A stretch of 64,000 bases of DNA from Betaproteobacteria bacterium (GTDB lineage: Bacteria > Pseudomonadota > Gammaproteobacteria > Burkholderiales > Rhodocyclaceae), in NCBI GenBank assembly GCA_016208415.1, contig JACQYB010000038.1, positions 22,730 to 86,729 on the forward strand. Direction: 5' to 3'. The position numbers were made by a program, and so were the translations under genes. This document shows positions 46,044 through 63,979 of this stretch, piece by piece. The notes beneath the pieces are model-generated. The model did not search any database and was not told the origin of the DNA. It was given only the letters and a program-made list of their open reading frames with translations. Within the stretch, counting starts at the first letter, position 1; every line of letters starts with the position of its first letter.

Positions 46044-49000
46044 TCAAGCCGCCGCCCATTCGGCGGAAAGCAGCGCGGCCTGCTCCAGCACCGTCTGCGT
46101 CGCCTTCTCCTGCTTGTCCGGCGGATAGCCGTACTTGCGCAGAATGCGCTTCACCAGCACGCGCAGTTGCGCGCGCACGTTCTCGCGCAGCGTCCAGTCG
46201 ATCGTGACGTTGGCGCGCACGGTCCGCACCAGTTCCTGCGCAATGGTGCGCAGGGTCTCGTCGCCGAGCACCTTCACCGCGCTGTCGTTCGTCTCCAAGG
46301 CGTCGTAGAAGGCCAGCTCGTCCTCGGAGAGGCGCAGCGCTTCACCGCGCGCGTGGGCCTCGCGCATCTCCTTCGCGAGCGCGATCAGCTCCTCGATCAC
46401 CTGCGCCGCTTCGATGGCGCGGTTCTGATACCGGCGGATCGTCTGCTCGAGCATCTCGGCGAACGAGCGCGCCTGCACGACGTTCTTGCGCCGCCGCGTG
46501 GCCAATTCGCCCTTCAGCAGCTTCTGCAGTAGCTCGACCGCGAGGTTGCGCTGGGGCATCCCCCGCACCTCGGCCAGGAACTCCTCCGAGAGAATCGAGA
46601 TGTCGGGCTTGGCGAGGCCCGCCGCCGAAAAAATGTCGATCACGCCCTCGGGCGCCACCGCGCGCGAGATGATCTGCCGCACCGCGTGCTCGATGTCCTC
46701 CTCGGGCCGCGCGTCGCCGGGGGCACGCTTGGCAAGCACGGCCTGCACCGCCTGGAAGAACGCCATGTCGTCGCGGATACGCAGCGCCTCGGCGTGCGGC
46801 ACCGCCAGCGCGAAAGCCTGCGATAGCTCGCGCACCGCTCCCACGCACCGCTCCTTGCCGCTCTCCTGCGCCAGGATGTGCTCCTGCGCGGCCGGCAGCA
46901 GGCCGAGGCGCTCCTGCGGCGTGCCGGTCGTCCACCTCGACCGGTCGAAGCCGTGGAAGAGGCTGGCGCACACCTCGTACTTCTCCAGCATCAGGGCGAC
47001 CGCCTCCTCCTGATCCAGCGCCGTGCGCCCGGTGCCGCCGCTCTCCGTGTACGTGGCCAGCGCCTGTTTCAACTCCTGGGCGAGACCCAGGTAGTCCACC
47101 ACCAGCCCGCCGGGCTTGTCCCCGAACACACGATTGACGCGGGCGATGGCCTGCATCAGGCCATGCCCGCGCATGGGCTTGTCGATGTACATCGTGGAAA
47201 GGCTCGGCGCGTCGAAGCCGGTGAGCCACATGTCGCGCACGAGCACGATCCGCAGCGCATCGGAGGGCTTCCGGAAGCGGTTGGCCAGCGCCTCGCGCCG
47301 CGGCTTGTTGCGGATGTGCGCCTGCCAGTCGGCCGGATCGGACGCCGAGCCGGTCATCACCGCCTTGATGGCGCCCTGGTTGTCGTCCTCGCTCGCCCAA
47401 TCCGGCCGCAGCCGGACGATCTCGTGGTACAGCTCCACGCAGATGCGACGGCTCATGCAGACGATCATCGCCTTGCCATCCATGGCCTCACGGCGCTGCT
47501 CGAAGTGCTCGACGATGTCGCGGGCGACGAGTTCCAGGCGCATCGAAGCGCCCACCACGGCTTCGAGCTGCGCCCACTTGGTCTTCAGCTTCTCCTTGCG
47601 CTCGACCTCCTCGCCCTCGGTGGCCTCCTCGAACCCGGGGTCGATCTTCGGCCGCTCGGCCTCGTCGAGCGCCAGCTTGGCCAGCCGGCTCTCGAAGTAG
47701 ATCGGCACCGTGGCGCCGTCCTGCACCGCGCGCTGGATGTCGTAGACGCTGATGTAGTCGCCGAACACCGCGCGCGTGTTGGCGTCGGCGAGCTCGATCG
47801 GCGTGCCGGTGAAGCCGATGAACGAGGCGTGCGGCAGCGCGTCGCGCATGTGGCGCGCGTAGCCGTCGATGAAGTCGTACTGGCTGCGGTGCGCCTCGTC
47901 GGTGATCACCACGATGTTGCGGCGCCCCGAGAGCGACGGGAGCCGGTCGCCCTTTTCCTCCGGGAAGAACTTGTGAATGGTGGTGAACACCACGCCGCCC
48001 GCCGCCACGCCGAGCAGTTCGCGCAGGTGCGCGCGCGATTCGGCCTGCACCGGCGGCTGGCGCAGCAGGTCCCGGCAGCGCGAGAAGGTGCCGAAGAGCT
48101 GGTCGTCGAGGTCGTTGCGGTCGGTGAGGACGACGATGGTCGGGTTCGCCATCGCCGGCTCGCGGATGATGCGGCCGGCGTAGAAGGCCATGGTCAGGCT
48201 CTTGCCCGAGCCCTGGGTGTGCCAGACCACGCCCACGCGCCGGTCACCGGGAGCGCCCCCGGGCTTGCCGCCGGCCTCGTAGCGACCTTGCTTGCCATGG
48301 GTGCCCAGCGGACCGTACTGAAGCCGCGCGGCCCGCAGCGTCTCGCCCACCGCCACCTGCACGGCGTGGAACTGGTGATAGCCGGCCATCTTCTTGACGA
48401 TGCGGCCGCCGTCGTCCTCGAACACGATGAAATCGCGCACCAGATCAAGGAAGCGCTGCCGTGCCAAGAGGCCTTTGATCACCACCTGTAGCTCAGGCAT
48501 GTGGGCGTCGGCCAGGGTGTCGCCCGCGATGGTGCGCCAAGGCTTGAACCACTCCCGCCCGGCGGTGAGCGTGCCGACGCGCCCCTCCACCCCGTCGGAG
48601 ATGGCGAGCAGGGCGTTGGTGGCGAACAGCGACGCGATCTCCGCCTTGTAGGTCTGCAACTGCTGCCAGGCGCTCCAGATGGTCGCGCTCTCGTCCGCCG
48701 CGTTCTTGAGCTCGACGACCGCCAGCGGCAGGCCGTTTACGAAGAGCACCACGTCCGGACGGCGCGCGTGCTTGTTCTCCGTGACGCTGAACTGGTTCAC
48801 CGCCAGCCAGTCGTTGCCCGCCGGGTCGTCGAAGTCGATCACCCGCGCCTGCGCGCCGCGGATCGTGCCGTCGGCGGTGCGGTACTCCACCGTCACCCCG
48901 TCGACCAGCAGCCGATGAAGCGCCCGGTTGCGCGCAACCGACTCGGCGCCTTCGGGCCGTGTGAGCTTGCGGAAGGCCTCCTCCAGCGCGTCGGCGGGCA

Positions 49001-49184
49001 GTACCGGATTGAGCTGCGCCAGTGCATCGCGCAGCCGCCGCGCCAGGACGACCTGGCCGTAGTCGTCACGCTCCGCGGCAGACTCACCAGGGGCGATCTC
49101 GGTGCCGTTCCTCACCAACCAGCCGGCGCTTTCGAGCCAGGCCAGCGCAGCCTGCTCGACGACGGATTCGTCGAACGCGGCCAT
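46044..49184 (-). CDS. hsdR: Type I restriction endonuclease subunit R
   Basis: 1046 aa with an N-terminal nuclease region (VELKNAADE), SF2 motor motifs ([40 protein letters not shown]) and a C-terminal helical domain. Confidence 0.95.
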
Positions 49185-49188
49185 ACGG

Positions 49189-50307
49189 CTAGGCGGCTTC
49201 GATCAGTTGATCGCTGATATGCACCCGCATCCAGCCGAGCAGCACGAGATTACGGATTGCACTTGCCACCGCGTGCCGCTTCTCCTCGGTCTGCCAGGCC
49301 TTCTTCCATCCCAGGATGTAGTCGTAGATGTCCTTCTCGGCCACCGTGTCGGCGCCCCTCGCCTGCTTGAGCTGACGACTCGCGTACAGCACGGTCAGGA
49401 CCTCTTCCGCCTGCTCGGTCGACTTGATGCGGCTGAACAGATCGACGGCCTTGGCGATCTTCTTCTGGTGGGCCTCGATCCGCGCTGCGAACTTGCCGCG
49501 GTCCTGTTCGTACTGGGGGCCGACCCTCAGCGCGACCATGCGCCCGAGGGATTTCTCCTGCAGCCAGTTCCGGTTCGCCAGTTCGTGCAGGGCCGCCTTC
49601 ACATCGGGAGAGAACGGCCCATAACTGCCCTTGCCGAACGAGAATCCAGTCGGCACGCCCATTTCCGTAACGACATAGCAGAGCTTCTGGAAAATCGTGC
49701 GGCCCACCGGATTCGCATATGGCTGCGCTTGCAGTTCGCGCAGCACTTCCAGCAGCGCGACCCAGTCCGGATTCAGCTTGTCGGTTGGGCGACCACGCCC
49801 AGACAGCGAGAGTTGCGCGGGCGCGGCCAGAAACGCCTCCGTGAGTTGCTGACCCGGTGTGCCGTAGGGCGCGAAAACCTCCACGTCCACCGGCAAGCGG
49901 TGCAGCTTGCGATAGACCAGGGGGCCGACCTCTGACCACTCCAGCCCACCGTTGCCGCAGCCCAAAGGCGGCAGGACCAGGCTCCTGATGCCCCATTCCC
50001 CGATGTGCGCCGCCAGGTAATCCAGCCCACGCTCGACATCCACGATCCGGGATGGCGAACGCCAGTGGTCCTTCGTCGGGAAGTTGACGATCGAAACGCC
50101 CGACGTGTCGCGGTACAGGTACGGCTCGCCCAGGCGCACTTGCCTGCACTCGCACCGCCGCTGGTAGTCCTCGAACATCGCCGGCCAGCGCTTCTTGAAC
50201 TCCAGCGCGACGCCCTTGCCCATCACCCCGACGCAATTGACGGTGTTGACGAGCGTTTGCGCCCGGGTCGCGAAGAGATCGCCAATCAGTGCCTTGAACA
50301 TGGTCAT
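49189..50307 (-). CDS. darG: DarG-like antitoxin (N-terminal macrodomain plus C-terminal DarT-associated domain)
   Basis: 372 aa with macrodomain motifs [25 protein letters not shown] and [12 protein letters not shown]. It lies 12 nt downstream of the DarT-like gene. Confidence 0.85.
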
Positions 50308-50319
50308 AGTTTGAACCTG

Positions 50320-50907
50320 TCAGCGAAAGAACAAAACGGGATCGACAGCGACCGGCAACGTGCAGCCGAGGTCCCCGAGGCGCGCCGCAGCCCCCGCATC
50401 GACGACAAATGCGCCCACGATGAAACCGGGTGCCACTTGGTGCGGAATCAAGACTTCCGCGCACTTGCGCGACTTGTGACGCCAGTAGGCGATCGGGTCA
50501 CCGGGGTGGCGCCAGTCCATGGCGAAGATGTCGTCCCAGTCGAGCAGCCGCCACTGCGCGGGCGCCAGGAAGCGCACGTAGTCGCTGGCCGCGTTCTGGT
50601 CGGTGATCACAGCCCCGGGCAGTGCCAGCACCTGGGTCGAAACCCGCAGCACGCACAGGCCATCCGCTTCGGATAGCCGCCTGTGCAGCATCGGGTTGCG
50701 CGCATGGAAGTAGAGGTTCGCGTACTGGTGCAGCTTCAAACCGCCGGGAACGTGCTTGTGATCGCGCCGGTCCTGCACGGGCTGCATCGCGACGGAATGG
50801 TGCGACAACTTGGCCGCGCGCTCGTAAGAAAGAATCCCGTGCGCAATCACCGATGCAATGTTGGCCATCGGCATGATGCAGTGGAGTTCGATGACGCGAG
50901 GGTCCAT
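50320..50907 (-). CDS. darT: DarT-like ssDNA ADP-ribosyltransferase toxin (DUF4433)
   Basis: ORF 50320..50988 with likely start MDPRVIELHCIMPMANIASVIAHGILS. The family-typical N-terminus and the AEVLIPHQV catalytic Glu context are present. Confidence 0.85.
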   Translation of the reverse strand: MDPRVIELHCIMPMANIASVIAHGILSYERAAKLSHHSVAMQPVQDRRDHKHVPGGLKLHQYANLYFHARNPMLHRRLSEADGLCVLRVSTQVLALPGAVITDQNAASDYVRFLAPAQWRLLDWDDIFAMDWRHPGDPIAYWRHKSRKCAEVLIPHQVAPGFIVGAFVVDAGAAARLGDLGCTLPVAVDPVLFFR

Positions 50908-50962
50908 TGCTAGACGGCCTCCGCAATCACTCTCTCGGCGCCCTTCACCCGCAAGTGGCCGG

Positions 50963-51158
50963 AGATCGTGCGCCAGGCCCTGAACCACTCGCGCCCGGCG
51001 GTGAGCGCGCCGACGCGCACCTCCACGCCGTCGGAGACGGCGAGTAGCGCGTTCGGCGCGAACAGCGTCGGCACCTTCGCCTTGTAGGTCTGGAACTGCT
51101 GGAAGGCGCTCCAGATCGTGGCGTTCTCGTCGGCGGCGTTCTTCAACTCCTCCGGCAG
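50963..51158 (-). pseudogene. internal fragment of a second hsdR allele (relic)
   Basis: ORF 50910..51374 contains [62 protein letters not shown]. This aligns with residues ~158-219 of the intact HsdR (48525..48713; roughly 70% of aligned residues identical on my hand count). No other HsdR segments are present. Confidence 0.75.
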
Positions 51159-51208: not shown

Positions 51209-51844
51209 TCATGCCCTCACCATTTCCAGCAGAACCTCTCGCAACGCGCAGAAGCTCGGCGAGGTGTTTCGCGACGGCGCCATGTGCGCTGCAACGGTGC
51301 GTGCGGCTTCTACCTTGCGCAGTCCGCCGCTGTAGTAGCCCGCCCTCTGAAGCACGCGCTCGAACGCCTCCCACGTGCCCCCCGCGATTTCATCCGGGGC
51401 GCGGTACTTCGCCTGCGAAGGAATGGTCGCGGACACTCCCGGATAAGCTGCCTGCACGGCCTCCCAGTCGCCGAAATAGCACGCCTCCAGTTCTTCGATC
51501 GCGAGACGATTCACCACCATGTAGGTACTACCCTTTGCGCTGGCACGTGTTGCCAAGCCGGCTTCACTGGCCATCTTCTCCAGGCGCCGTTTGAGTCCCG
51601 CGCAATCGTCGTCGTCCCGATCGATCACGACGACGATACGGCAATGGTCGCGAAACCATGCATCGCTCTTGCGCCGCTGGCCGTAGCCACGCAGTCGATG
51701 TGGAAGGCGGAGCAGCAGTTCGTCCTTGCACTGGTGCGGGTATATCTCGAAGGACAGATCGCCGAGTACCTTGGGCAGGAGGAGACGAAGCGCGGCCTCC
51801 ATTGAGGGCTCTTCAACGAGCAACTCGACATGTTCCACCGTCAC
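51209..51844 (-). CDS. DUF4276 family protein (TOPRIM-like E...DxD arrangement)
   Basis: Part of ORF 51209..52108. The GTG at 51844 overlaps the ATPase stop (GTGA). Sequence: [28 protein letters not shown] ... [21 protein letters not shown] ... The family assignment is from memory of DUF4276 sequence features, not a search. Confidence 0.7.
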
Positions 51845-53066
51845 TTCGGCTTCCCCTGTTTCGCCGGGGCTCCCGAGCGCACCAGGGGATCTCCCACGCC
51901 GAACCGTCCTTCCATCCACAGGTGACCAAGGGATGCGCCCGCTTCCATGAACTCGGGAACGCCCGGAATGTCGGCGGCGCGAATGGCTTGGGTGTAGCCC
52001 TGTTCGTCCCGATAGAGCACACGCACCTCTTCCGCAGGCAACGCATTTACGAAAAAGGGTGAGTGGGTCGTGACCAGTAATTGCGAGCGTTCCGACGCGG
52101 CGCGGCACTCTTCCGCCAGTTCGGGCAGAAGGCGCGGATGCAGAAAGTTTTCGGGCTCCTCGATGCCGACAAACGGCGGCGGGGCGGGGTCGTGCAACAG
52201 CACAAGATAGGCCAGCATCTTGAGTGTGCCGTCCGAGGCAAACCTCGCCAGCACGGGGTTATCGAAAGGCGCGTCCTTGATCTGCAACAGCAGGCGTCCA
52301 TCCGGCATGGCTTCGGCCAGCACGCGCTCGACCCTGGGAACCCGTGCGCGCAGCACATTGAAAATGCGTTCCAGCCGGTCGGGATGCTGTTCAGCCAAAT
52401 ACTGGATGACGTTCGCCACGTTGTTCCCGGTACGGGACAGTCGCTCCTGCGGCCCGGTTTCCGGCTGGCCTCGCGTTTCATCGACGGAAAAATAGGAAAC
52501 GTACCAGCCGGTGATGAAGTCGCGCAGCGCGGCCACGCGGGGATGGTCGGCAAACTGGCCCAAGGCATTGACGGCGATGAGGTCCGGCGCTTTCAGCGGA
52601 ATCTCAATCCGTTTGTCCTGCTCGTCCGGCAGTTCCCCGCTGGCGGCTTTTCCTTGACCCTCGTGATAATCCAGAAAACGAAAAGGCTGCCCGTGACTAC
52701 CCCGCTTCCAGCGCAACCATTCTTCGACCACAACCGGCGAACCTTTACGCTCATCAACCGCCAGGTGATAGGTAATGAGCGGATAGCCCGGCTCGCGATA
52801 CTTGATTTCAATGACTAGTGGACCATCGCCTCCCCGGGTCTTCAATTCCTTCCCTCGTCCGCGGCGATCCCAGGCGCGGCGCAGCCCCGATTCGAAGCAC
52901 TCCGAGAGGAAAGCGAAGACGTCGAAGACCGTGGATTTGCCGCTGCCGTTGGCGCCCAACAGGGCCGTCATCGGCGTGAGATTCTTGAACTCCACGTGTT
53001 TGAGCGCGCGGTAATTCTCGACCCGCAGATACTCTATCCGAGCCTTGTGCCCCTGGTTATCCTTGG

Positions 53067-53070
<4 letters not shown>
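51841..53070 (-). CDS. ABC/SMC-like AAA family ATPase (AAA_21/AAA_15 type)
   Basis: 409 aa with Walker [10 protein letters not shown], signature-like [11 protein letters not shown], Walker [15 protein letters not shown] and H-loop TTHSP. The ATG overlaps the hsdS stop (ATGA). Confidence 0.85.
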
Positions 53071-54408
<1,338 letters not shown>

Positions 54409-54419
<11 letters not shown>

Positions 54420-54480
54420 ACCCAAGCTCCTTGAGGTTCGCGGCAATTGCGGCATCCAGCTTCGCAGCCTCCACTTGACT
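54409..54480 (-). pseudogene. relic of an hsdM 3' end fused to the hsdS start region
   Basis: The out-of-frame reading [23 protein letters not shown] matches the C-terminus of the intact HsdM ([19 protein letters not shown]). It ends in the classic ATGGCGGGTGA hsdM/hsdS overlap. Confidence 0.65.
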
Positions 54481-55625
54481 CACGATTTCCTCCTGCGAGC
54501 CGCCGGCGTCGGCCTCAAATCACCCGACAGCTCCGCCTCGATCTCTTCCACCGTCGGCAGACTCCCCTTGAGCGCCTTCGGGAGCTTCTCGACGAGCTTC
54601 GTCTCCCAGCCGGCGACGCCGATCGGGCGCTTCAGGTGGCGCAGCGCGTATTCGACGACGACCTTGTTCTTCGCGCGGCACAAGAGCAGCCCGATGGTGG
54701 GCTGGTCATCGGGGTGTCGCAGCAGGTCGTCGGCGGCGGAGAGGTAGAGGTTCAACTGACCGACGAAGGCCGGGTCGAAGGGCACGGCCTTGAGCTCGAC
54801 GACGACGTAGCAGCGCAGCTTCAGGTGGTAGAAGAGGAGGTCGATCTGGAAGTCCTGGTCGCCGACTTCAAGCGGCACCTGCCGGCCGACGAAGGCGAAG
54901 CCGCTGCCCAGCTCCAACAGGAAGCGCTGGATGTGATCGACGAGGGCTTGCTCGACTTCGCGCTCGCGGCGCGGGTCGGCGGTGCCGAGGAAGTCGAAGA
55001 GGTACGGATCCTTGAAGACTTGGGCGGTCAGGTCCGACTCGGCGTGCGGCAGGGTGTCACAAAAGTTGGTGATCGCCTTGCCCTGGCGCTCGTGGGCGCG
55101 ACCCTGGATCTGGAGCACCAGGATGTTGTGCGACCAGCCGTGCTCCATCGCCTGCCGGGCGTACCAGAGCCGTTCGGTGGGGTCGTCGAGCTTCTCCAGG
55201 AGGGCGATGTGGTGGTACCAGGGAATTCGTGCAAGCGCCTCTTGCACGATTGCCCGCTCCGGCCACGCTGCGGCAAGCGCACGCATGTACTTGAGATTGC
55301 GCGGCGAGAAGCCCTTCATGTCGGGGAACGCCGCGCGCAGGTCCGCGGCCAGCCGGTCGATCACCTTCGCGCCCCAGCCCGCGCGTTCCTGCCGGTCGAG
55401 GATCATCCGGCCGATGTCCCAGTAGAGCAGGACCATCGCCGCGTTGGCGGTGAGGACGACCCGCAAGCGTTCTTCGTGGATGCGCTGCTTGATGGCGCCG
55501 AGGGTATCCGCGTAGTCCTGCGGCAGACCACCCTTCGCTGGCGCGGCCGGAAACCGGGCCTCCTCCCGCTGTCGGCCCAAGGCAAGCCGGTTCTCCGCTT
55601 CGGCACGCTGGCGCTTACGAGCCAT
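54480..55625 (-). CDS. DUF1016/YhcG-like PD-(D/E)XK nuclease family protein
   Basis: ORF 54480..55631; ATG at 55625 (MARKRQ) preceded by AAGGAG. It has the family N-terminal helical domain (LLYWDIGRMI, FSPRNLKYMRAL) and a nuclease core (IDLLFYHLKLRCYVVVELK). Confidence 0.85.
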   Translation of the reverse strand: MARKRQRAEAENRLALGRQREEARFPAAPAKGGLPQDYADTLGAIKQRIHEERLRVVLTANAAMVLLYWDIGRMILDRQERAGWGAKVIDRLAADLRAAFPDMKGFSPRNLKYMRALAAAWPERAIVQEALARIPWYHHIALLEKLDDPTERLWYARQAMEHGWSHNILVLQIQGRAHERQGKAITNFCDTLPHAESDLTAQVFKDPYLFDFLGTADPRREREVEQALVDHIQRFLLELGSGFAFVGRQVPLEVGDQDFQIDLLFYHLKLRCYVVVELKAVPFDPAFVGQLNLYLSAADDLLRHPDDQPTIGLLLCRAKNKVVVEYALRHLKRPIGVAGWETKLVEKLPKALKGSLPTVEEIEAELSGDLRPTPAARRRKS

Positions 55626-55690
55626 ACCCAAGCTCCTTCAGTCTGGCGGCGATGGCGGAATTCAGCTTCGACGCCTCGGCCTCCAAATGC
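55615..55690 (-). pseudogene. second relic of an hsdM 3' end
   Basis: The end of ORF 55615..55869 reads LEAEASKLNSAIAARLKELGYGS*. It shares the nucleotide string AAGGAGCTTGGGTATGGC with the hsdS start region and overlaps the DUF1016 start in the same way. Confidence 0.65.
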
Positions 55691-55751: not shown

Positions 55752-57408
55752 TCACCGGGGCGTCCTCCGGTAGCTGACGCTCCGTCCTCGCTCGCCCTCG
55801 CGCTCGACAAGCCCTTGTTGCGCCAGGCGATCGAGCAGCCGGTAGGCCTGTGGGCCAGTGATCCGGCACAGCTCCGCCACCTCGCGCCTGGTGATCCGCC
55901 CGTGCTTTTCCACGTATTGCAGCACCATCTGCTCCTGCTGCAGCGGCTCGAAGCCGCGGCTCCGCACGTAGCCGGCCTTGTCCCCGAGCAGCCGGTAGGT
56001 CGCGGCGGAGAGGTGCCAGGTGCGGCCCTTCTTCTGGCCGCGCTCTTCGACGAGCCCGGCTTCGACGAGGCGGTGCAGCGCGGCGCGCGTTTGGCTTTCA
56101 GGCTTCTGCACGAGGCGGGCGGCATCGTCGGTGGTGAGACTGCGCGCCTGCCACAGCGTGTTGAGGATGAGAAGTTCATTGAGCGCGAGATCACGCCCGT
56201 GCTGGGCTTCGGTCACCAGCAGGCGCACGAAGTCGAGGTTGGCCGCGCCGCCGGGGATGACGACGCTGACCGTGGCTTCGTTGCTGCGCGCATAGGAGGG
56301 TGCGGGGCGGCCGTTGCGCAGTTGATCGTAGAAGATGGTGTCGATGCCGCGCGCGGTGCGCTCGACGATGCCGGCACGCTTGAAGGCGTCGGCCAGCAAG
56401 GGGTTCCTCGGGCGCGGCGCGGTGATGAGCAGGTTGTCGAGCCGCACGCCTTCGGGAAAGCCGCCGGGGCTGGTGATCTCGATATGGTCGATCTGCCACT
56501 GGAAGTGCACGGCGCCCAGACGCTGGTAGTCGCGGTGGATCAGGGCATTGGCCACGGCTTCGCGCAGCGCCCGTTCCGGGTAGTCGGGTACGCCGACGCG
56601 CAGGAGGCCCACCATGAGTTCCTGCTCGCGGTTGCGGGCACGGATGCGGGCCTCGATTTCCTCCATGACACGCAGCAGGGGCCAGCGGAAGAAGTCGTTG
56701 ACCTCCACGTCGAGTCCGCGCAGGGCCTGGAAGGCGGTTTCGTGGCCTGGCAGGAAGCGGCGCAGGGCACGCCGCGCACGATGCCGTTGGCTTCCACCAC
56801 GCCCAGCGCCTTGGCCAGTTCCAGATCGGGCAGGTCGAGCAGGGATTCGTCGCTGCGGCCCCGGCGCTCGCGGATGCTGCGGCGGAAGCGCTCGAATTCC
56901 AGGGGGTCCAGGTCTTCCCAGCGAACGGCGGCGACGATCTGGGCCGAGGGGTCAAGCTGCCCCCGATCCGCTTGCAGCGACTGCATCGCGTAACTATCCA
57001 TGGGCAGGCATGCCGGCCGGCCGTCGCCGCCCAGCGCCCGGCGCAGGAAGACGCCATCGCTGGTACCCATCGGATGCTGCTGAGGCGGTGCTTCGATAAC
57101 CAGCACGGCCTTGCCGTCGAGCGGGACTTCCTCGACCTGCACTGCCAAGGCCGGGCGGGTGCGCGCCGCGATCAGCGCGGCCAGCTTGTGGATGTCGGTG
57201 GTTTCTCCGTGGCGGGGGCGGGCACCGGTGACGCGGCCATTGTCCTCGACGCCGATCAGCAGCCAAGCCGGTTCGCCGCCGATGCGGTTGGTCAGGCAAA
57301 CCACGGCTTCGACCAGATCGCGGTCATTGAGAGGCGAGCGTTCCTCGCCCTTGAATTCGACGTTCAAGGTTTCGCCAGCAGCGATCAGATTGCGCAGGGT
57401 TTCGCGGG

Positions 57409-57412
<4 letters not shown>
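55752..57412 (-). pseudogene. COG2865-type putative DNA-binding ATPase/transcriptional regulator (AlbA_2 + HATPase-like + wHTH), frameshifted
   Basis: The N-terminal part is in the frame of ORF 56540..58411: a GTG at 57412 overlaps the hsdM stop, then [23 protein letters not shown]...[10 protein letters not shown]. The continuation is in the frame of ORF 55752..56708: [27 protein letters not shown]...[15 protein letters not shown]...wHTH. A single 1-nt frame change near 56770 joins them. Confidence 0.75.
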
Positions 57413-59043
<1,631 letters not shown>

Positions 59044-59208
59044 TGTCAACCTCACGAGATGATGGCGCACCGGAGTGTCACTGGATCGTCTCACGAAATT
59101 GGCATTGCGGCATGGCCGCGCACCACGGGCGCGCGAGAGAGTGAGCGCGTGCGTTGTGTCGTCAGGAACAGCCGCCGGACTGCGCGTTTACGTAGCCTCC
59201 CGGGCCCC

Positions 59209-60423
59209 CTACCGCCCCTTCATCCCCTCCAGCCTCCCCAGATCCACCCTCTCCAGCGCCTGCTTCACCACCGCCATATCCACCCCGCGCCCCTCCGCCT
59301 CCACCACGAAGCGCTCGGCCACGATGGTGGCGTAGCTCGCCTCCCGCGCCGACTTGCGGTACGACTCGCGGAAGAAGCGGCCGCCGGCCTTGCCGGTCTT
59401 CTCGTAGCCGTCGGCGCTTTCCTTGTCGGACTCGATCATGCCGAAGCCCGCCACGGCCAGCAGCGCCTGGGCGCCGCCCGAATCGGTGATGGAGATCTGC
59501 ACGCCGCGGCCCTGGTCGTCGGCGTAGTGCGCCTCGGCGCGGGCGATGTGGGCGCCGCCCATGCCCACCTTCTGGCTTTCGATCTCGGTGCGCGCCAGGC
59601 CGTCCAGGGCCTCGGGCAGCACGGCCCGCAGTTGCTGGTGATCCACCGGCTCGCGGCCGCCGCTGGCGCCGGCCAGCGCGCCCATGGCTTCGGTGGCCGC
59701 CTTCATCTGCGCCTGGGGATCGCCGCTCTTCTGCGCTTCTTCCATCTTGCGGCCGGCGGCTTCCATCTTCTCGCCGAATTCCTTCATCTTCGCGAGCTGG
59801 TCGTCGCCGCCGCCGGAGGACACGGCGGGCGCCGTCGCCGCCACGCCGCCCGCCATGCCGCCGATGCCCGAGGCCACCATGCCGAGGACCAGCGACACCA
59901 CGAAGGCGCACACCACCACCACCGCCGTGTAGGGCAGCGCCTTCTCCTTGGGCCCCTGCATCAGCGCCTGCAGGCCGAGATGCAGCAGGTACAGCCCGTA
60001 GAGGCTGGCCAGCAGGATCAGCGGCGAAAGCATGGGCAGGATCTGCAGCGCACCGGCCAGCCAGCCCGGGGTGTAGGAATAGGCGGCCACCTTGAGCGCC
60101 TGGGCCATGTCCTGCCGGGCGCCGAAGCGCGGCGCCAGGGCGTTGATGATGAAGGCCACGGCATAAACTGCCACCAGCCCCATGGCGAAGGTGGCGAGCG
60201 CCATCGCCAGCCCCCCGGGGATGGGCATGCGCTGCGTGCCCAGCATGGGCACCGAAATGCCCACCAGGCTGAAGCCGATGAAGCCCGCCACGGCGCCGAT
60301 GGCCGCCAGCGGAATGATGTAGCCGCGGTACAGCTCCGCGGCGGGGGTCTGCTCCCCGCGGATCACTTCCCACTCGGATCTGGGTTGCAGCAGGATCTTC
60401 TTGACGCGTTCGACGAGGTTCAT
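59209..60423 (-). CDS. Yip1 domain membrane protein with C-terminal soluble domain
   Basis: Part of ORF 59209..60726, starting MNLVERVKKILLQPRSEWEVI (typical Yip1/DUF1282 N-terminus). It has 5 TM helices, then a ~190-aa soluble domain of unknown function. Confidence 0.7.
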   Translation of the reverse strand: MNLVERVKKILLQPRSEWEVIRGEQTPAAELYRGYIIPLAAIGAVAGFIGFSLVGISVPMLGTQRMPIPGGLAMALATFAMGLVAVYAVAFIINALAPRFGARQDMAQALKVAAYSYTPGWLAGALQILPMLSPLILLASLYGLYLLHLGLQALMQGPKEKALPYTAVVVVCAFVVSLVLGMVASGIGGMAGGVAATAPAVSSGGGDDQLAKMKEFGEKMEAAGRKMEEAQKSGDPQAQMKAATEAMGALAGASGGREPVDHQQLRAVLPEALDGLARTEIESQKVGMGGAHIARAEAHYADDQGRGVQISITDSGGAQALLAVAGFGMIESDKESADGYEKTGKAGGRFFRESYRKSAREASYATIVAERFVVEAEGRGVDMAVVKQALERVDLGRLEGMKGR

Positions 60424-60578
60424 TGCCCATCCTCCCGGTGACGTTGGTATTGGATCGCACGGTTCCCGACGCGCGGCCAGGCGATCCGCCGAATCACGGC
60501 CAGGTCGCCGCCCTGCCTTGCAGTCGATGGGTGCCAGTGTGCCACCAACGGGGGCGGCTCGGCATCCCCGGGTGGATG

Positions 60579-60770
60579 CTATGGTGCCGCCGCGGCGACG
60601 TCGATGGCGGCACGGCGCTCGTCCGCGTTCTTCGGAGTGGGCGCTGCGCCGCTCACGCCCTCCAGCAGGCTGATCACCTCCTTGTTCACCGAGCGGTGAT
60701 GGGCGTCGGCCTGCTGCTTCAGCCATCGGTGCAGGGATTCCGGGACGTCGCGCAGGGTAAGGGAAGGCAT
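60579..60770 (-). CDS. ribbon-helix-helix antitoxin (FitA/VapB/Arc-like), no cognate toxin adjacent
   Basis: 63 aa, MPSLTLRDVPESLHRWLKQQADAHHRSVNKEVISLLE. This is the typical RHH antitoxin N-terminus. Confidence 0.65.
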   Translation of the reverse strand: MPSLTLRDVPESLHRWLKQQADAHHRSVNKEVISLLEGVSGAAPTPKNADERRAAIDVAAAAP

Positions 60771-60865: not shown

Positions 60866-63800
60866 CTACGACTGCGGCGCCAACACCAGTTCCGGCACCA
60901 CCACCTCCCAGCGCTCGCAGCGCAGGCGGTCGCGGTATTCGGGCTCGGAATCCTCGCGGAGGCGCACGACGATGGCCACGACCCGGGCGGCGATGCAGGC
61001 CATGCCCGGCGGCAGCGTGCAAGCCCGGGCGAGGCGGCCGACGACGCGCCCTTGCTCGTCCACCAGTTCGCGCTGCTCCCCGTCCAGGCGCAGCCGCAGC
61101 GGGGAGCCAGGCACAAGCGCGGCGATGGCGCGATGCACCGGGTGCGCGGCCGCGCGGCGGCCGGCGTAGCCGAGATCCACTTCGGCCAGGGTCAGCCGGC
61201 GGTACTGCCGCGCCAGTTCCGGCGCCGGCGGCGCAAGCTGCACGGGCGCGCGCCGCAGCAGGCCGGCGGCCTCGGGCAGGGCGTCCAGCAGCGCGTGGCG
61301 CCCGTCCAGGCGCGCCAGGGCGAGGGTGGCGCGGGCGCGGGTCATGGCCACGTAGTAGAGGCGGCGCGGGGCGTCGGGGTCTTCGGCGCGGTCGACGCGA
61401 TCCCAGCCGCCGTCCAGCACCGCCACGTGGTCGAACTCCAGCCCCTTGGCGCGGTGGGCGGTGAGCAGCAGCAGGCCGCCCTGGCGGCGGCGCACCTCCC
61501 GGCCCCATTCCGCCAGCCATTCCGTGAAATGGTCGATGGGCAGTTCGGCGCCGCCGGTCTCCAGGGTGTATTCCTGCACCGCCTCGCGCAGCAGTTCGAA
61601 CCAGGGGCCGCCGGCTGGCGCGGCGCCCGGCGCCGGACCCGTCGCCCGGCCTGCATCGTGCGCGCCGTCCGTCGCATGCGCCCCTTCCGCCCCTTCGGCC
61701 AGGTGCGCGCCGCAAGCGCCCGCCGCCCCGTCCAGCCAGCGCTCCAGGGCGGCGGCGTCGATCAGGCGGGGCTCCCGCGCGAGCAGCCAGTCGAGCAGCG
61801 CCCGGGTTTCCCGCAGGCGCCAGAAGTTCGGTGCCTCCTCGTCGGCCATCTGCACCGCGATCCCGAGCAGTTCGCAATGGCTGCGCACGGGCTCCAGGTA
61901 CTTCCATTCGCGGGCGATCACGGCGGTTCGCGCCCAGTCCCAGGCGGGAGCGAGGGCGGCGAGGCGCTGCAGCTCGGCCATCACCGCCACGGCCTGGGTC
62001 AGGGCGTCGGCGCCGGCCGACAGGACCTGGACGCGGCCCTGGCTCACCGCGTCCAGGCCGCTCCATTCGCCGCCGGCGGGCGTGGCGGCCCGCGCCCGGT
62101 CGATGGTGATGGGCTGCCCGGCCTTCATGCGCGCACGGGCCGGTGCGATGACCGCGTTGGCGGCGGCGATGATGTGGGCGCTGCTGCGGTAGTTCTCGGT
62201 GAGCCAGGCCGGTTTCGCCCCGTAGTCGGCCTCGAAGCGGCGGATGAACTCCACCGACGCGCCCTGGAAGGCGTAGATGTTCTGGTCGTCGTCGCCCACG
62301 GCGAACAGGCTCAGGCGCCGCTCCTCGTCGGCCAGCGTGCGACCCGCCAGCGCGGAGATCAGCTCGTACTGCTCCGGGCCGATGTCCTGGTATTCATCGA
62401 CCAGGATCCAGCGGAAGCCGGCCATCAGCCGCTCGCGCTGGGCGCCGCCGTCCGGTTCCCGCTCCTCCGGCGGCAGGTCGTCGCCCTTGAGCCGCGCCAC
62501 CGCTTGTAGCAGCACCGAGCGGAACGCCGCCTCGTCCAGCCTTTCCGCGCGACCGGCAAAGCTCACCCCCGCCAGGCGCATGGCCAGGGCGTGGCAGGTG
62601 AGCACGCTGACGCCGCGCGCATCGTCGCCGATCAGCTCCGCCAGGCGGCGCCGGATCTGCACCGCGGCGTGGCGGTTGTAGGCCAGCGCCAGGATGCCGT
62701 GGGGGTTGTCGCGGCGCACCCGCACCAGGTACGCGATGCGATGCACCAGCACCCGCGTCTTGCCCGAGCCCGGCCCGGCCAGCACCAGGACGTTGGTCTG
62801 CTCGCGCTCGTCGGCGACGATGCGCGCCTGCGCCGGATTGCGCAGCGACTCCACGATCTCCCGCCACGACTGCGGCGTGGTCTGGCGCGCCAGTTCCTTA
62901 TCCCGCCCCGGCAGCCAGCGGCGCAGGAACTCCTCCTGTGCCAGGCAGAAATAGTCCATGGCCAGGCGCAGCGCCTCGGCCATGGCCTGCAGCCCGCGCC
63001 GGGCGTATTCCGCCATGACGTGGATGTGCACCACCTGCTCGTCGTAGTGGAGCTTGAGCGGGGCGAAATCGGCGCGGCCGAAACCGCGCCGCTCCTGGCC
63101 GAGGCGCAGCGTCATGGCGGGGCGGAACACCGCCAGCCCCTTGTTGAGGCGGATCACCTCCTGCTCGTGCAGCCACATCAGGGCGCGGTCCAGCAGGCGC
63201 GGCAGGTCCCGGGCCTCGGCCTTCAGCACCAGGTCGCCCTCCAGCGCCGCCAGCAGCCTGCCCAGGGTGGTCTCGGCGAGCAGGTCGACGCCCCGGGCGC
63301 CGGGCGGCAGACAGGAAAGCCAGTGCTCCAGCAGGCGTGCCGCGGCGGCACGGCGGCGCCGGGCGGTCTCGGCCAGCGCCGACCACTCGCGGCGCAGGCT
63401 CACCTGCACGGTTTCCGCGTCCAGGCGGCGCAGGCCCAGGCTGCCCGCGCCTCCGTCCTCGCTGCGGCCGTCGGCGGCGAGGCTGCGCAGGATGCGCCAC
63501 AGCGTTTCCGGCAGGATGGGGTTGATGCACCCGGCGCCGTCCGACGACGCCCCGAGCGGGTTCGCCGCGGTCTCGGCGCGGTCCTCCGCGGTCTCGGCGC
63601 GGCCCGCCACCACGGGCCGGGCATGGCCCGCGTCCTTCAGCCGCTGGGCGGCGTGGCGCAGGTGCAGCACGCTTGCCTCGCCCCTGGCCAAATCGGGCGC
63701 CGCTTCGCGCAGGTCGTCGATCAGCGCTGCCTCCAGCGCCGCGGCCGCCTCCAGCCGCCTCGCCGACGAGCGTTCCACCCCGGCGTGGACGAAGGCGGTC

Positions 63801-63979
63801 AGCGCCGTGTCGTTGCTGGCGATGCCCAGCCGCTCCAGGTCGTAGAGGGCGGCGCGCACCTTCTCCGCGCTCAGGCCAGCCATGCCCATCAGCTCGTCGG
63901 TGGAAATGCCCTCGTCGGCGTCCGCGCCGATCAGCGCCTCCACCAGCGCCAGCAGGCGGCGGCGGTAGTCCTCGGCCAT
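60866..63979 (-). CDS. UvrD/Rep-family (SF1) helicase with long N-terminal and extra C-terminal regions; may be 5'-incomplete
   Basis: 1037-aa ORF with Walker A LAGPGSGKTRVLVHRIAYL, DEYQDIGPEQ, ENYRSSAHII and YYVAMTRARATL. About 390 aa precede the helicase core. The reading frame stays open upstream of ATG 63979 to the window edge. Confidence 0.85.
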   Translation of the reverse strand: MAEDYRRRLLALVEALIGADADEGISTDELMGMAGLSAEKVRAALYDLERLGIASNDTALTAFVHAGVERSSARRLEAAAALEAALIDDLREAAPDLARGEASVLHLRHAAQRLKDAGHARPVVAGRAETAEDRAETAANPLGASSDGAGCINPILPETLWRILRSLAADGRSEDGGAGSLGLRRLDAETVQVSLRREWSALAETARRRRAAAARLLEHWLSCLPPGARGVDLLAETTLGRLLAALEGDLVLKAEARDLPRLLDRALMWLHEQEVIRLNKGLAVFRPAMTLRLGQERRGFGRADFAPLKLHYDEQVVHIHVMAEYARRGLQAMAEALRLAMDYFCLAQEEFLRRWLPGRDKELARQTTPQSWREIVESLRNPAQARIVADEREQTNVLVLAGPGSGKTRVLVHRIAYLVRVRRDNPHGILALAYNRHAAVQIRRRLAELIGDDARGVSVLTCHALAMRLAGVSFAGRAERLDEAAFRSVLLQAVARLKGDDLPPEEREPDGGAQRERLMAGFRWILVDEYQDIGPEQYELISALAGRTLADEERRLSLFAVGDDDQNIYAFQGASVEFIRRFEADYGAKPAWLTENYRSSAHIIAAANAVIAPARARMKAGQPITIDRARAATPAGGEWSGLDAVSQGRVQVLSAGADALTQAVAVMAELQRLAALAPAWDWARTAVIAREWKYLEPVRSHCELLGIAVQMADEEAPNFWRLRETRALLDWLLAREPRLIDAAALERWLDGAAGACGAHLAEGAEGAHATDGAHDAGRATGPAPGAAPAGGPWFELLREAVQEYTLETGGAELPIDHFTEWLAEWGREVRRRQGGLLLLTAHRAKGLEFDHVAVLDGGWDRVDRAEDPDAPRRLYYVAMTRARATLALARLDGRHALLDALPEAAGLLRRAPVQLAPPAPELARQYRRLTLAEVDLGYAGRRAAAHPVHRAIAALVPGSPLRLRLDGEQRELVDEQGRVVGRLARACTLPPGMACIAARVVAIVVRLREDSEPEYRDRLRCERWEVVVPELVLAPQS

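Follow-up and report, generated by a model that had tools for sequence, protein, structure and literature searches.

A gene pair inside a Type I restriction-modification operon

The stretch analysed here, hereafter the window, covers 64,000 nucleotides of a genome labelled Betaproteobacteria bacterium (GenBank assembly GCA_016208415.1, contig JACQYB010000038.1, positions 22,730 to 86,729 of the forward strand). Its subject is a pair of neighbouring genes on the minus strand, inside a Type I restriction-modification (R-M) operon. The first, HEC-01A (51841-53070), encodes a 409 amino acid ABC-type ATPase of the AAA_15/AAA_21 family, as assigned by Pfam and PADLOC. The second, HEC-01B (51209-51844), encodes a 211 amino acid DUF4276 protein, a TOPRIM-like putative nuclease according to Pfam, PADLOC, an AlphaFold2 model and a Foldseek search. 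Both genes are real and intact. Judged by its profile matches, the pair is an instance of HEC-01, an already catalogued candidate anti-phage module. It is a horizontally mobile two-gene cassette, which is co-transcribed here with the R-M genes.

The two genes are tightly packed behind hsdS. The ATG of the ATPase gene (53070-53068) overlaps the hsdS TGA (53069-53067) as ATGA at 53067-53070, and the GTG of the DUF4276 gene (51844) overlaps the ATPase TGA (51843-51841) as GTGA at 51841-51844, a gene overlap of 4 nt. A first reading, made from the letters without database searches (the sequence-only reading), had claimed translational coupling to hsdS and within the pair, and both overlaps can indeed be read in the sequence. 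The same reading placed the pair between hsdS and the hsdR side of the operon. The pair does lie directly after hsdS, but it is not adjacent to the intact hsdR, as an hsdR remnant of 64 residues, DarT and DarG intervene between HEC-01B and that gene.

By comparison with its homologues, the GTG at 51844 is the right start of HEC-01B, because most of them have 211 amino acids and conserve the first 14 residues (E7, V10, E11, E12 and S14 are invariant). The public record of the exact HEC-01B protein (P0001, from a metagenome-assembled genome labelled Betaproteobacteria bacterium) begins at Met15 and has 197 amino acids, and the same start call is found in about one quarter of the database homologues listed. 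As a lesson for annotation, this public call is 14 codons too late (51802-51844 in the window), and therefore loses strand 1 together with E11/E12, the putative catalytic Glu.

The ATPase carries the motifs GANGSGKST, SDGTLKML, FVGIEEPE and TTHSP, which start at residues 39, 279, 300 and 334; the motifs quoted by the sequence-only reading are all present. They were assigned to Walker A (G39-T47, with K45), a signature-like motif (S279-D-G-T282), Walker B (I303-E304-E305) and the H-loop (H336), and all four are invariant among 31 aligned homologues. Pfam returned the two expected families, AAA_21 (2.3e-31) and AAA_15 (1e-15). In PADLOC, residues 10-394 matched the HEC-01A profile (PDLC04182) over positions 2-404 of 406, with E=2.4e-161 and 535 bits. 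Weaker PADLOC matches were to AriA (2.2e-30, 105 bits), AbiLi (2e-24), mad3 (6e-24, 83 bits) and PtuA. By sequence, the nearest solved relatives are PtuA of Septu (4e-9), OLD of Thermus (4.5e-7), retron PtuA, Rad50 and SMC. The fold matches of the ATPase model, first PtuA of Septu and retrons and then OLD (6p74), count as a confirmation of the family only and not as a specific relationship of the insert domains. The ATPase also matches a 610-position phage family of unknown function in PHROG (phrog_4747, E=1e-66). The phage homologues may pair or fuse with something other than DUF4276.

The second protein had been read as DUF4276, and Pfam bears this out over its full length (PF14103, 6.4e-27). 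Residues 5-209 also matched the PADLOC HEC-01B profile (PDLC04202) over positions 2-201 of 204, with E=3.2e-80. LLVEEPS starts at residue 8 and a 10-letter motif containing DxD at residue 71. From E11/E12 to D75/D77 we measured 63-66 residues, where the sequence-only reading had claimed a Glu to DxD spacing of about 64. In the AlphaFold2 model, built with 27 homologues, the pLDDT (predicted local distance difference test) is 87.3 and the predicted template modelling (TM) score 0.84. The order of elements is strand 5-10, helix, strand 31-36, long helix, strand 68-75 and helix, which places E11/E12 after strand 1 and D75-R-D77 after strand 3. In the alignment of the 27 homologues E11, E12, D75, R76, D77 and the acidic I116-E-E-L-E-A121 are invariant.

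When the HEC-01B model was compared with 350,542 PDB chains in Foldseek, a single match was significant. This was 6nk8_A, the C-terminal part, with the TOPRIM domain, of OLD from Burkholderia pseudomallei (E=9e-4, probability 1.0, TM 0.49/0.51). Among viral predicted structures, an RloB-like phage protein ranked second (probability 0.96, TM 0.45). The Toprim superfamily is characterized by a conserved Glu after strand 1 and a DxD after strand 3, on a three-layer fold with the order beta2-beta1-beta3-beta4; HEC-01B has both acidic positions, and the order of elements in its model fits. A TOPRIM-like nature of HEC-01B is therefore supported by the layout of the model, the fold matches to OLD and the RloB-like protein, and the invariant acidic residues, in line with the remote OLD similarity expected by the sequence-only reading. 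A search of PDB chains with the DUF4276 sequence profile gave nothing meaningful, so that the predicted link to TOPRIM comes from fold comparison only. The NCBIfam and PHROG libraries hold no family matching the DUF4276 protein.

Kinship with HEC-01 and other defence systems

[quoted passage not shown] In the window, the ATPase matches the HEC-01A hidden Markov model and the adjacent gene product the TOPRIM-like HEC-01B model, both over their full length. The two families and their order (ATPase, then TOPRIM-like) are the same as in the reference, and the pair again lies inside a methylation-based defence operon. The sequence-only reading had allowed for an undescribed module, unless the pair proved to be a known named system. 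Since it is such a system, the claim of novelty falls, and the finding represents no new kind of system. The label “uncharacterised” is still fair as regards the mechanism of HEC-01.

The pair differs from the reference in its surroundings. HEC-01 was defined from Hma loci, whereas the host here is a Type I R-M system into which DarTG, PDC-S02 and an AlbA_2 gene are inserted as well. In E. coli the reference representative showed no activity; the present clade is known from sequence alone. The MANTIS preprint, which we met in the literature search, is unrelated to the pair.

An ABC ATPase with a separate TOPRIM partner had been compared with PARIS, AbiL and OLD as architectural analogues, and the domain and fold matches agree with this comparison. 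PARIS is likewise split into an ATPase of the AAA_15/21 family and a TOPRIM protein, and is likely the mechanistic template, with a sensor scaffold that releases a TOPRIM nuclease. Its partner AriB, however, belongs to DUF4435, whereas the partner here is DUF4276. The ATPase scores 105 bits (2.2e-30) against the AriA model of PARIS and fivefold more, 535 bits, against HEC-01A. We rejected PARIS as the identity of the pair, as neither Pfam nor PADLOC gave a DUF4435/AriB match and the AriB structure was not a significant fold match of HEC-01B (8v46_D, rank 50, E=0.72).

AbiL, or RloA-RloB, also combines an AAA_21-type ATPase with a small partner of the Toprim superfamily, and the Rlo genes (restriction-linked open reading frames) likewise occur inside Type I R-M loci. 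A domain survey from 2025 (Menshen) assigns both DUF4276 and RloB to the Toprim superfamily, as sister families and not as one family, and equates Mad4 with DUF4276 (PMC12065111). The likeness of HEC-01B to the AbiL partner is at fold level only, without a sequence match to RloB (PF13707) or AbiLii, and AbiL was rejected as well.

In MADS, Mad3 is an AAA_15/21 ATPase, Mad4 has been reported as a DUF4276 homologue, and the system is methylation-based with M- and S-like subunits. The structural study of PARIS groups “MADS3-4” (DUF4276) and AbiL with the ABC ATPase plus TOPRIM systems (PMC11464382). The MADS3 model is the best match of the ATPase among the named NCBIfam models (NF047739), but at 111 bits it stays far from its cutoff of 420, and there is no mad4 match in PADLOC; MADS was therefore rejected. 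Moreover, the neighbours here are the canonical hsdM, hsdS and hsdR and not mad1-8, with Type I scores far above those for mad2 and mad5.

OLD, GajA of Gabija and HEC-04 share the ABC ATPase and the TOPRIM nuclease with a Glu/DxD metal site. Their domains are fused in one polypeptide, joined in Gabija by the GajB helicase, while those of the pair are encoded by separate genes. With two separate open reading frames and no helicase within the operon, OLD and Gabija were rejected. A precedent for the position of the pair is PrrC, an ABC-type ATPase defence protein and a known restriction guard. In the EcoprrI gene order, prrC sits between hsdS and hsdR. PrrC carries its anticodon-nuclease domain fused in one polypeptide in place of a TOPRIM partner, and its sequence relation to HEC-01A is limited to the ABC core.

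Based on these analogies, we favour, with somewhat more confidence than doubt, a two-component system resembling PARIS or AbiL, in which an ATP-dependent sensor ABC ATPase would control a metal-dependent TOPRIM nuclease. By analogy with AriA/AriB of PARIS, AbiL and OLD/Gabija, the ATPase would bind its TOPRIM partner and hold it latent until a phage-derived cue alters the ATP-dependent state of the ATPase. The freed or activated nuclease could then cut nucleic acid through its Glu/DxD metal site, and this cleavage would halt the replication of the phage at the expense of the growth of its host. The analysis itself shows the domain identities, the invariant catalytic residues, the gene pairing, the recurrent embedding in Type I R-M and the signature of transfer; we infer the HEC-01A/HEC-01B complex, the trigger, the substrate (transfer RNA, on which AriB acts, or DNA, on which OLD acts) and the abortive outcome from the same systems. 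A role in defence is supported by the matches of the ATPase, of which PtuA and OLD, both defence ATPases, are the closest and AriA, AbiLi and mad3 are further ones.

Distribution, transfer and possible function

HEC-01 is widespread. In a pattern scan with one genome per species, at least 569 genomes encode a relative, and the best 80 loci were examined. These belong to Proteobacteria, Myxococcota, Planctomycetota, Acidobacteriota, Chloroflexota, Verrucomicrobiota, Fibrobacterota and Gemmatimonadota, with one from Methanosarcina. A tblastn search with the window proteins placed the ATPase gene immediately upstream of the DUF4276 gene, on the same strand, at 78 of the 80 loci, and the other two end at a contig edge. 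The two-gene pairing is effectively obligate. When clustered at 50% identity, the DUF4276 family itself yields 1,665 groups (969 at E<=1e-10) of stand-alone proteins with about 200 amino acids, and no fusion to an ATPase was present among the top 150 cluster representatives.

Simple calling of open reading frames is unreliable in this sequence of high guanine-cytosine (GC) content, and the neighbour statistics are therefore based on Pfam and PADLOC matches. In about 16-17 of the 80 loci (about 20%), which come from many phyla, the pair has Type I R-M genes beside it, usually in the order hsdM...hsdS-pair-hsdR. The nearest upstream reading frame is hsdS in 9 of 60 loci and the nearest downstream one hsdR in 9 of 72. 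A family with one or two copies per genome would be expected next to hsdS or hsdR far less often than in the 12-15% of loci where one of these is the nearest neighbour. The other neighbours of the surveyed pairs are mixed housekeeping genes, with two RhuM/PDC-S05 and two PDC-S23 among them. A DUF1016 gene stands between hsdM and hsdS, as in the window, in four loci (L011, L017, L028 and L062). The composite hsdM-DUF1016-hsdS-...-HEC-01-hsdR was seen in Deltaproteobacteria, Planctomycetota, Fibrobacterota and Burkholderiales, and this recurrence across groups suggests that the composite operon has been transferred as a whole unit.

The recurrent embedding raises the question whether the cassette is tied to the Type I enzyme as a restriction guard, like PrrC in EcoprrI or PARIS with anti-restriction proteins, a reading that we consider unlikely. 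Such a guard would stay silent while HsdMSR is active, and fire when a phage anti-restriction protein, such as an Ocr- or ArdA-type DNA mimic or a Stp-like peptide, disables the R-M system or mimics its target. The start and stop overlaps, which couple the pair to hsdS in one terminator-free operon, fit this idea, and so does the hsdS-pair-hsdR placement that recurs in many phyla, often with the DUF1016 gene. AriA of PARIS, moreover, is triggered by Ocr. Payne et al. name EcoprrI (PrrC) and discuss such logic for embedded ABC-ATPase systems, and their own negative test of HEC-01 was done in R-M-lacking E. coli and without the host-system genes (10.1101/2024.01.29.577857). On the other hand, about 80% of the close homologues lack Type I R-M genes within 10 kb, and with so many stand-alone copies the pair cannot generally depend on the Hsd complex. 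HEC-01 was, furthermore, first found embedded in Hma and not in Type I R-M (10.1101/2024.01.29.577857), and a cold-seep homologue was reported to be active on its own plasmid (10.1101/2024.09.26.614923).

In its most specific form, the guard would be a tripwire: placed between hsdS and hsdR, the strongly conserved HEC-01 ATPase would watch over the Type I complex, or over an anti-restriction DNA mimic attached to it, and set the DUF4276 nuclease free upon sabotage of restriction. This version, too, has in our view only a small chance of being correct. If true, it would explain the silence of the reference HEC-01 alone in R-M-free E. coli, and hsdM-DUF1016-hsdS-HEC-01-hsdR would be a layered unit of restriction plus backup, moving between phyla as a block.

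For the sensor-nuclease system that we favour, the nearly complete pairing and the Type I R-M genes beside about one fifth of the loci count as support. The following points weigh against this reading. About 80% of the loci have ordinary housekeeping genes and not defence genes as neighbours, and most candidates of Payne et al. were not enriched near defence systems (10.1101/2024.01.29.577857). The ATPase, with a mean identity of 74% across phyla, is conserved to a degree unusual in a defence sensor. The 50,697 phage genomes searched contain not one DUF4276 relative, and only four of 72,556 plasmids carry relatives; carriage on mobile elements is not indicated by these searches. Outside the ABC core, the AlphaFold model of the ATPase has low confidence (pLDDT 61). 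In HEC-01B of the window, residue 122 (51479-51481, minus strand) is a Cys, which replaces a near-invariant Trp (IEELEAWYFGDW).

The anti-phage activity of HEC-01 is also unsettled in the literature. A representative gave no protection against the BASEL or classic coliphages in E. coli MG1655 delta-RM (10.1101/2024.01.29.577857), which is a further point against a defence system. With a cold-seep representative, E. coli B was protected from one or more of the phages T4, T5 and T7 (10.1101/2024.09.26.614923). The value of this result for the defence reading is lowered, as no magnitude was stated and isopropyl β-D-1-thiogalactopyranoside (IPTG) overexpression was used (10.1101/2024.09.26.614923).

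The base composition of the cassette carries a signature of horizontal transfer. At 0.615, its GC content lies below that of the remaining operon (0.668) and of the remaining window (0.692). In a comparison of 60 loci the GC content of the cassette regresses toward about 0.58 whatever that of the host, and this deviation from the hosts marks the transfer; the offset is +0.13 in Methanosarcina and -0.16 in another locus (L027). In Methanosarcina sp. DH2 (L056, 8775-10609), the pair has 54% GC within flanks of 41%, and its proteins are 83% (ATPase) and only 55% (DUF4276) identical to those of the window. As judged from these values, the locus points to a recent transfer between domains, with the ATPase under a much stronger constraint than the putative nuclease.

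Mobility of this kind would also suit a selfish cassette, akin to a toxin-antitoxin (TA) module, in which the ATPase restrains a TOPRIM toxin with little or no direct anti-phage role. It would persist by post-segregational killing and by hitch-hiking in the often-transferred R-M operons. The strong transfer signature, the patchy distribution and the housekeeping neighbours are compatible with such an element, as are the negative defence assay (10.1101/2024.01.29.577857), the Pfam annotation of AAA_21 as “putative AbiEii toxin, Type IV TA system” and the insertion of a bona fide TA module, DarTG, right beside the pair. Plasmids, the usual stronghold of addiction modules, however, rarely carry the family (4/72,556). 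Phage protection was reported in one study (10.1101/2024.09.26.614923), and the related pairs of ATPase and TOPRIM in PARIS, AbiL and MADS3-4 are defence systems (PMC11464382). We therefore regard addiction as quite an unlikely explanation.

The conservation of the two proteins is uneven. The ATPase is more conserved than its DUF4276 partner in 69 of 70 loci, with a mean identity of 74% vs 61%, and among the best 120 ATPase matches in a large protein database, which are spread across phyla, none falls below 80% identity. Very high conservation of both proteins across phyla could be expected of a housekeeping function in DNA repair, where an ABC ATPase together with a Toprim protein would act in the processing of ends or gaps, as do RecF-RecR or SbcC/Rad50-like proteins, and where the adjacency to R-M genes would be due to chance. 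Weak N-terminal matches of the ATPase to RecF, Rad50, SMC and SbcC-like families and the mostly housekeeping neighbours point in the same direction. Core repair genes, however, do not show such a patchy distribution and non-native GC content, exemplified by the 83% identical ATPase in a Methanosarcina of 41% GC. The rate of hsdS or hsdR as nearest neighbours is far above expectation, and the best ATPase matches are all defence ATPases. A repair function thus seems very improbable.

The defence system of ATPase sensor and putative TOPRIM nuclease accordingly stays our preferred reading. For the design of experiments on it, the obligate pairing, the unusual conservation of the ATPase and the prrC-like position in about one fifth of the loci are useful.

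The remaining genes of the operon

From 5′ to 3′ the operon reads hsdM, AlbA_2 gene, DUF1016, hsdS, HEC-01A, HEC-01B, hsdR remnant, DarT, DarG and hsdR. Its three Type I genes, hsdM, hsdS and hsdR, are all intact and on one strand. We found no terminator or sigma-70 consensus interrupting the operon or marking the cassette borders, and no tRNA gene at these borders. Defence genes are nested here within a defence operon, as one Type I unit holds four inserted modules, namely the AlbA_2 gene, PDC-S02, HEC-01 and DarTG.

The first gene of the operon, hsdM (57409-59094, minus strand), encodes the Type I methyltransferase (Pfam N6_Mtase 9e-105 and HsdM_N; PADLOC MTase_I 4e-220). The specificity subunit is encoded by hsdS (53067-54455, minus; Pfam Methylase_S, PADLOC Specificity_I 5e-104), and the restriction and translocase subunit by the intact hsdR, the last gene of the operon (46044-49184, minus; HSDR_N, SWI2_SNF2 and T1RH-like_C, PADLOC REase_I E=0). 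The DUF1016/YhcG gene (54480-55631, minus) codes for a PD-(D/E)xK nuclease, the PADLOC candidate PDC-S02 (YhcG_C 7e-64, DUF1016_N 8.5e-43; PADLOC PDC-S02 3e-149).

Directly downstream of the pair lies the remnant of a second hsdR (about 50958-51149, minus; BLASTP 4e-32, Pfam HSDR_N 2.4e-8). Its 64 residues correspond to HsdR 158-221 and are 78% identical to the intact copy. The remnant suggests a recombination scar, left when an older hsdS-HEC-01-hsdR arrangement was joined with DarTG and the present hsdR. An arrangement of this older type is present in five of the surveyed loci (L036, L043, L011, L017 and L028).

DarT (50320-50988, minus) is a single-stranded DNA ADP-ribosyltransferase toxin (Pfam DarT 2.4e-29, PADLOC DarT 1.2e-35), and DarG (49189-50307, minus) its macrodomain antitoxin (Pfam Macro 1.4e-13, PADLOC DarG 1.7e-91). 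The true start of DarT is likely the Met at about 50907, as called for this gene in a nearly identical contig (L001), which is also the only one of the 80 related loci where DarTG was seen.

The gene between hsdM and DUF1016 (55752-57403, minus) combines, according to its translations and Pfam, an AlbA_2 (Schlafen) domain with HATPase_c_4 and a winged helix. Its GTG start and the hsdM stop share the sequence GTGA. The reading is split over two frames, with SLFN_AlbA_2 (4e-14) on 56543-57403 and HATPase_c_4 (7e-16) plus the winged helix-turn-helix on 55755-56708 in Pfam, and the frames overlap at about 56540-56710. The gene is either a frameshifted pseudogene or the result of an assembly error.

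Upstream of the R-M operon, and outside of it, a gene on the minus strand (60869-63979) encodes a protein of 1037 amino acids. No GajA-like partner is visible for it before the window ends, and the N-terminal part of about 380 residues is without assignment. The C-terminal two thirds form a UvrD-like helicase, matched by PADLOC GajB models with up to 1.5e-49. Between this gene and the operon lies a gene for a Yip1-domain membrane protein (59209-60726).

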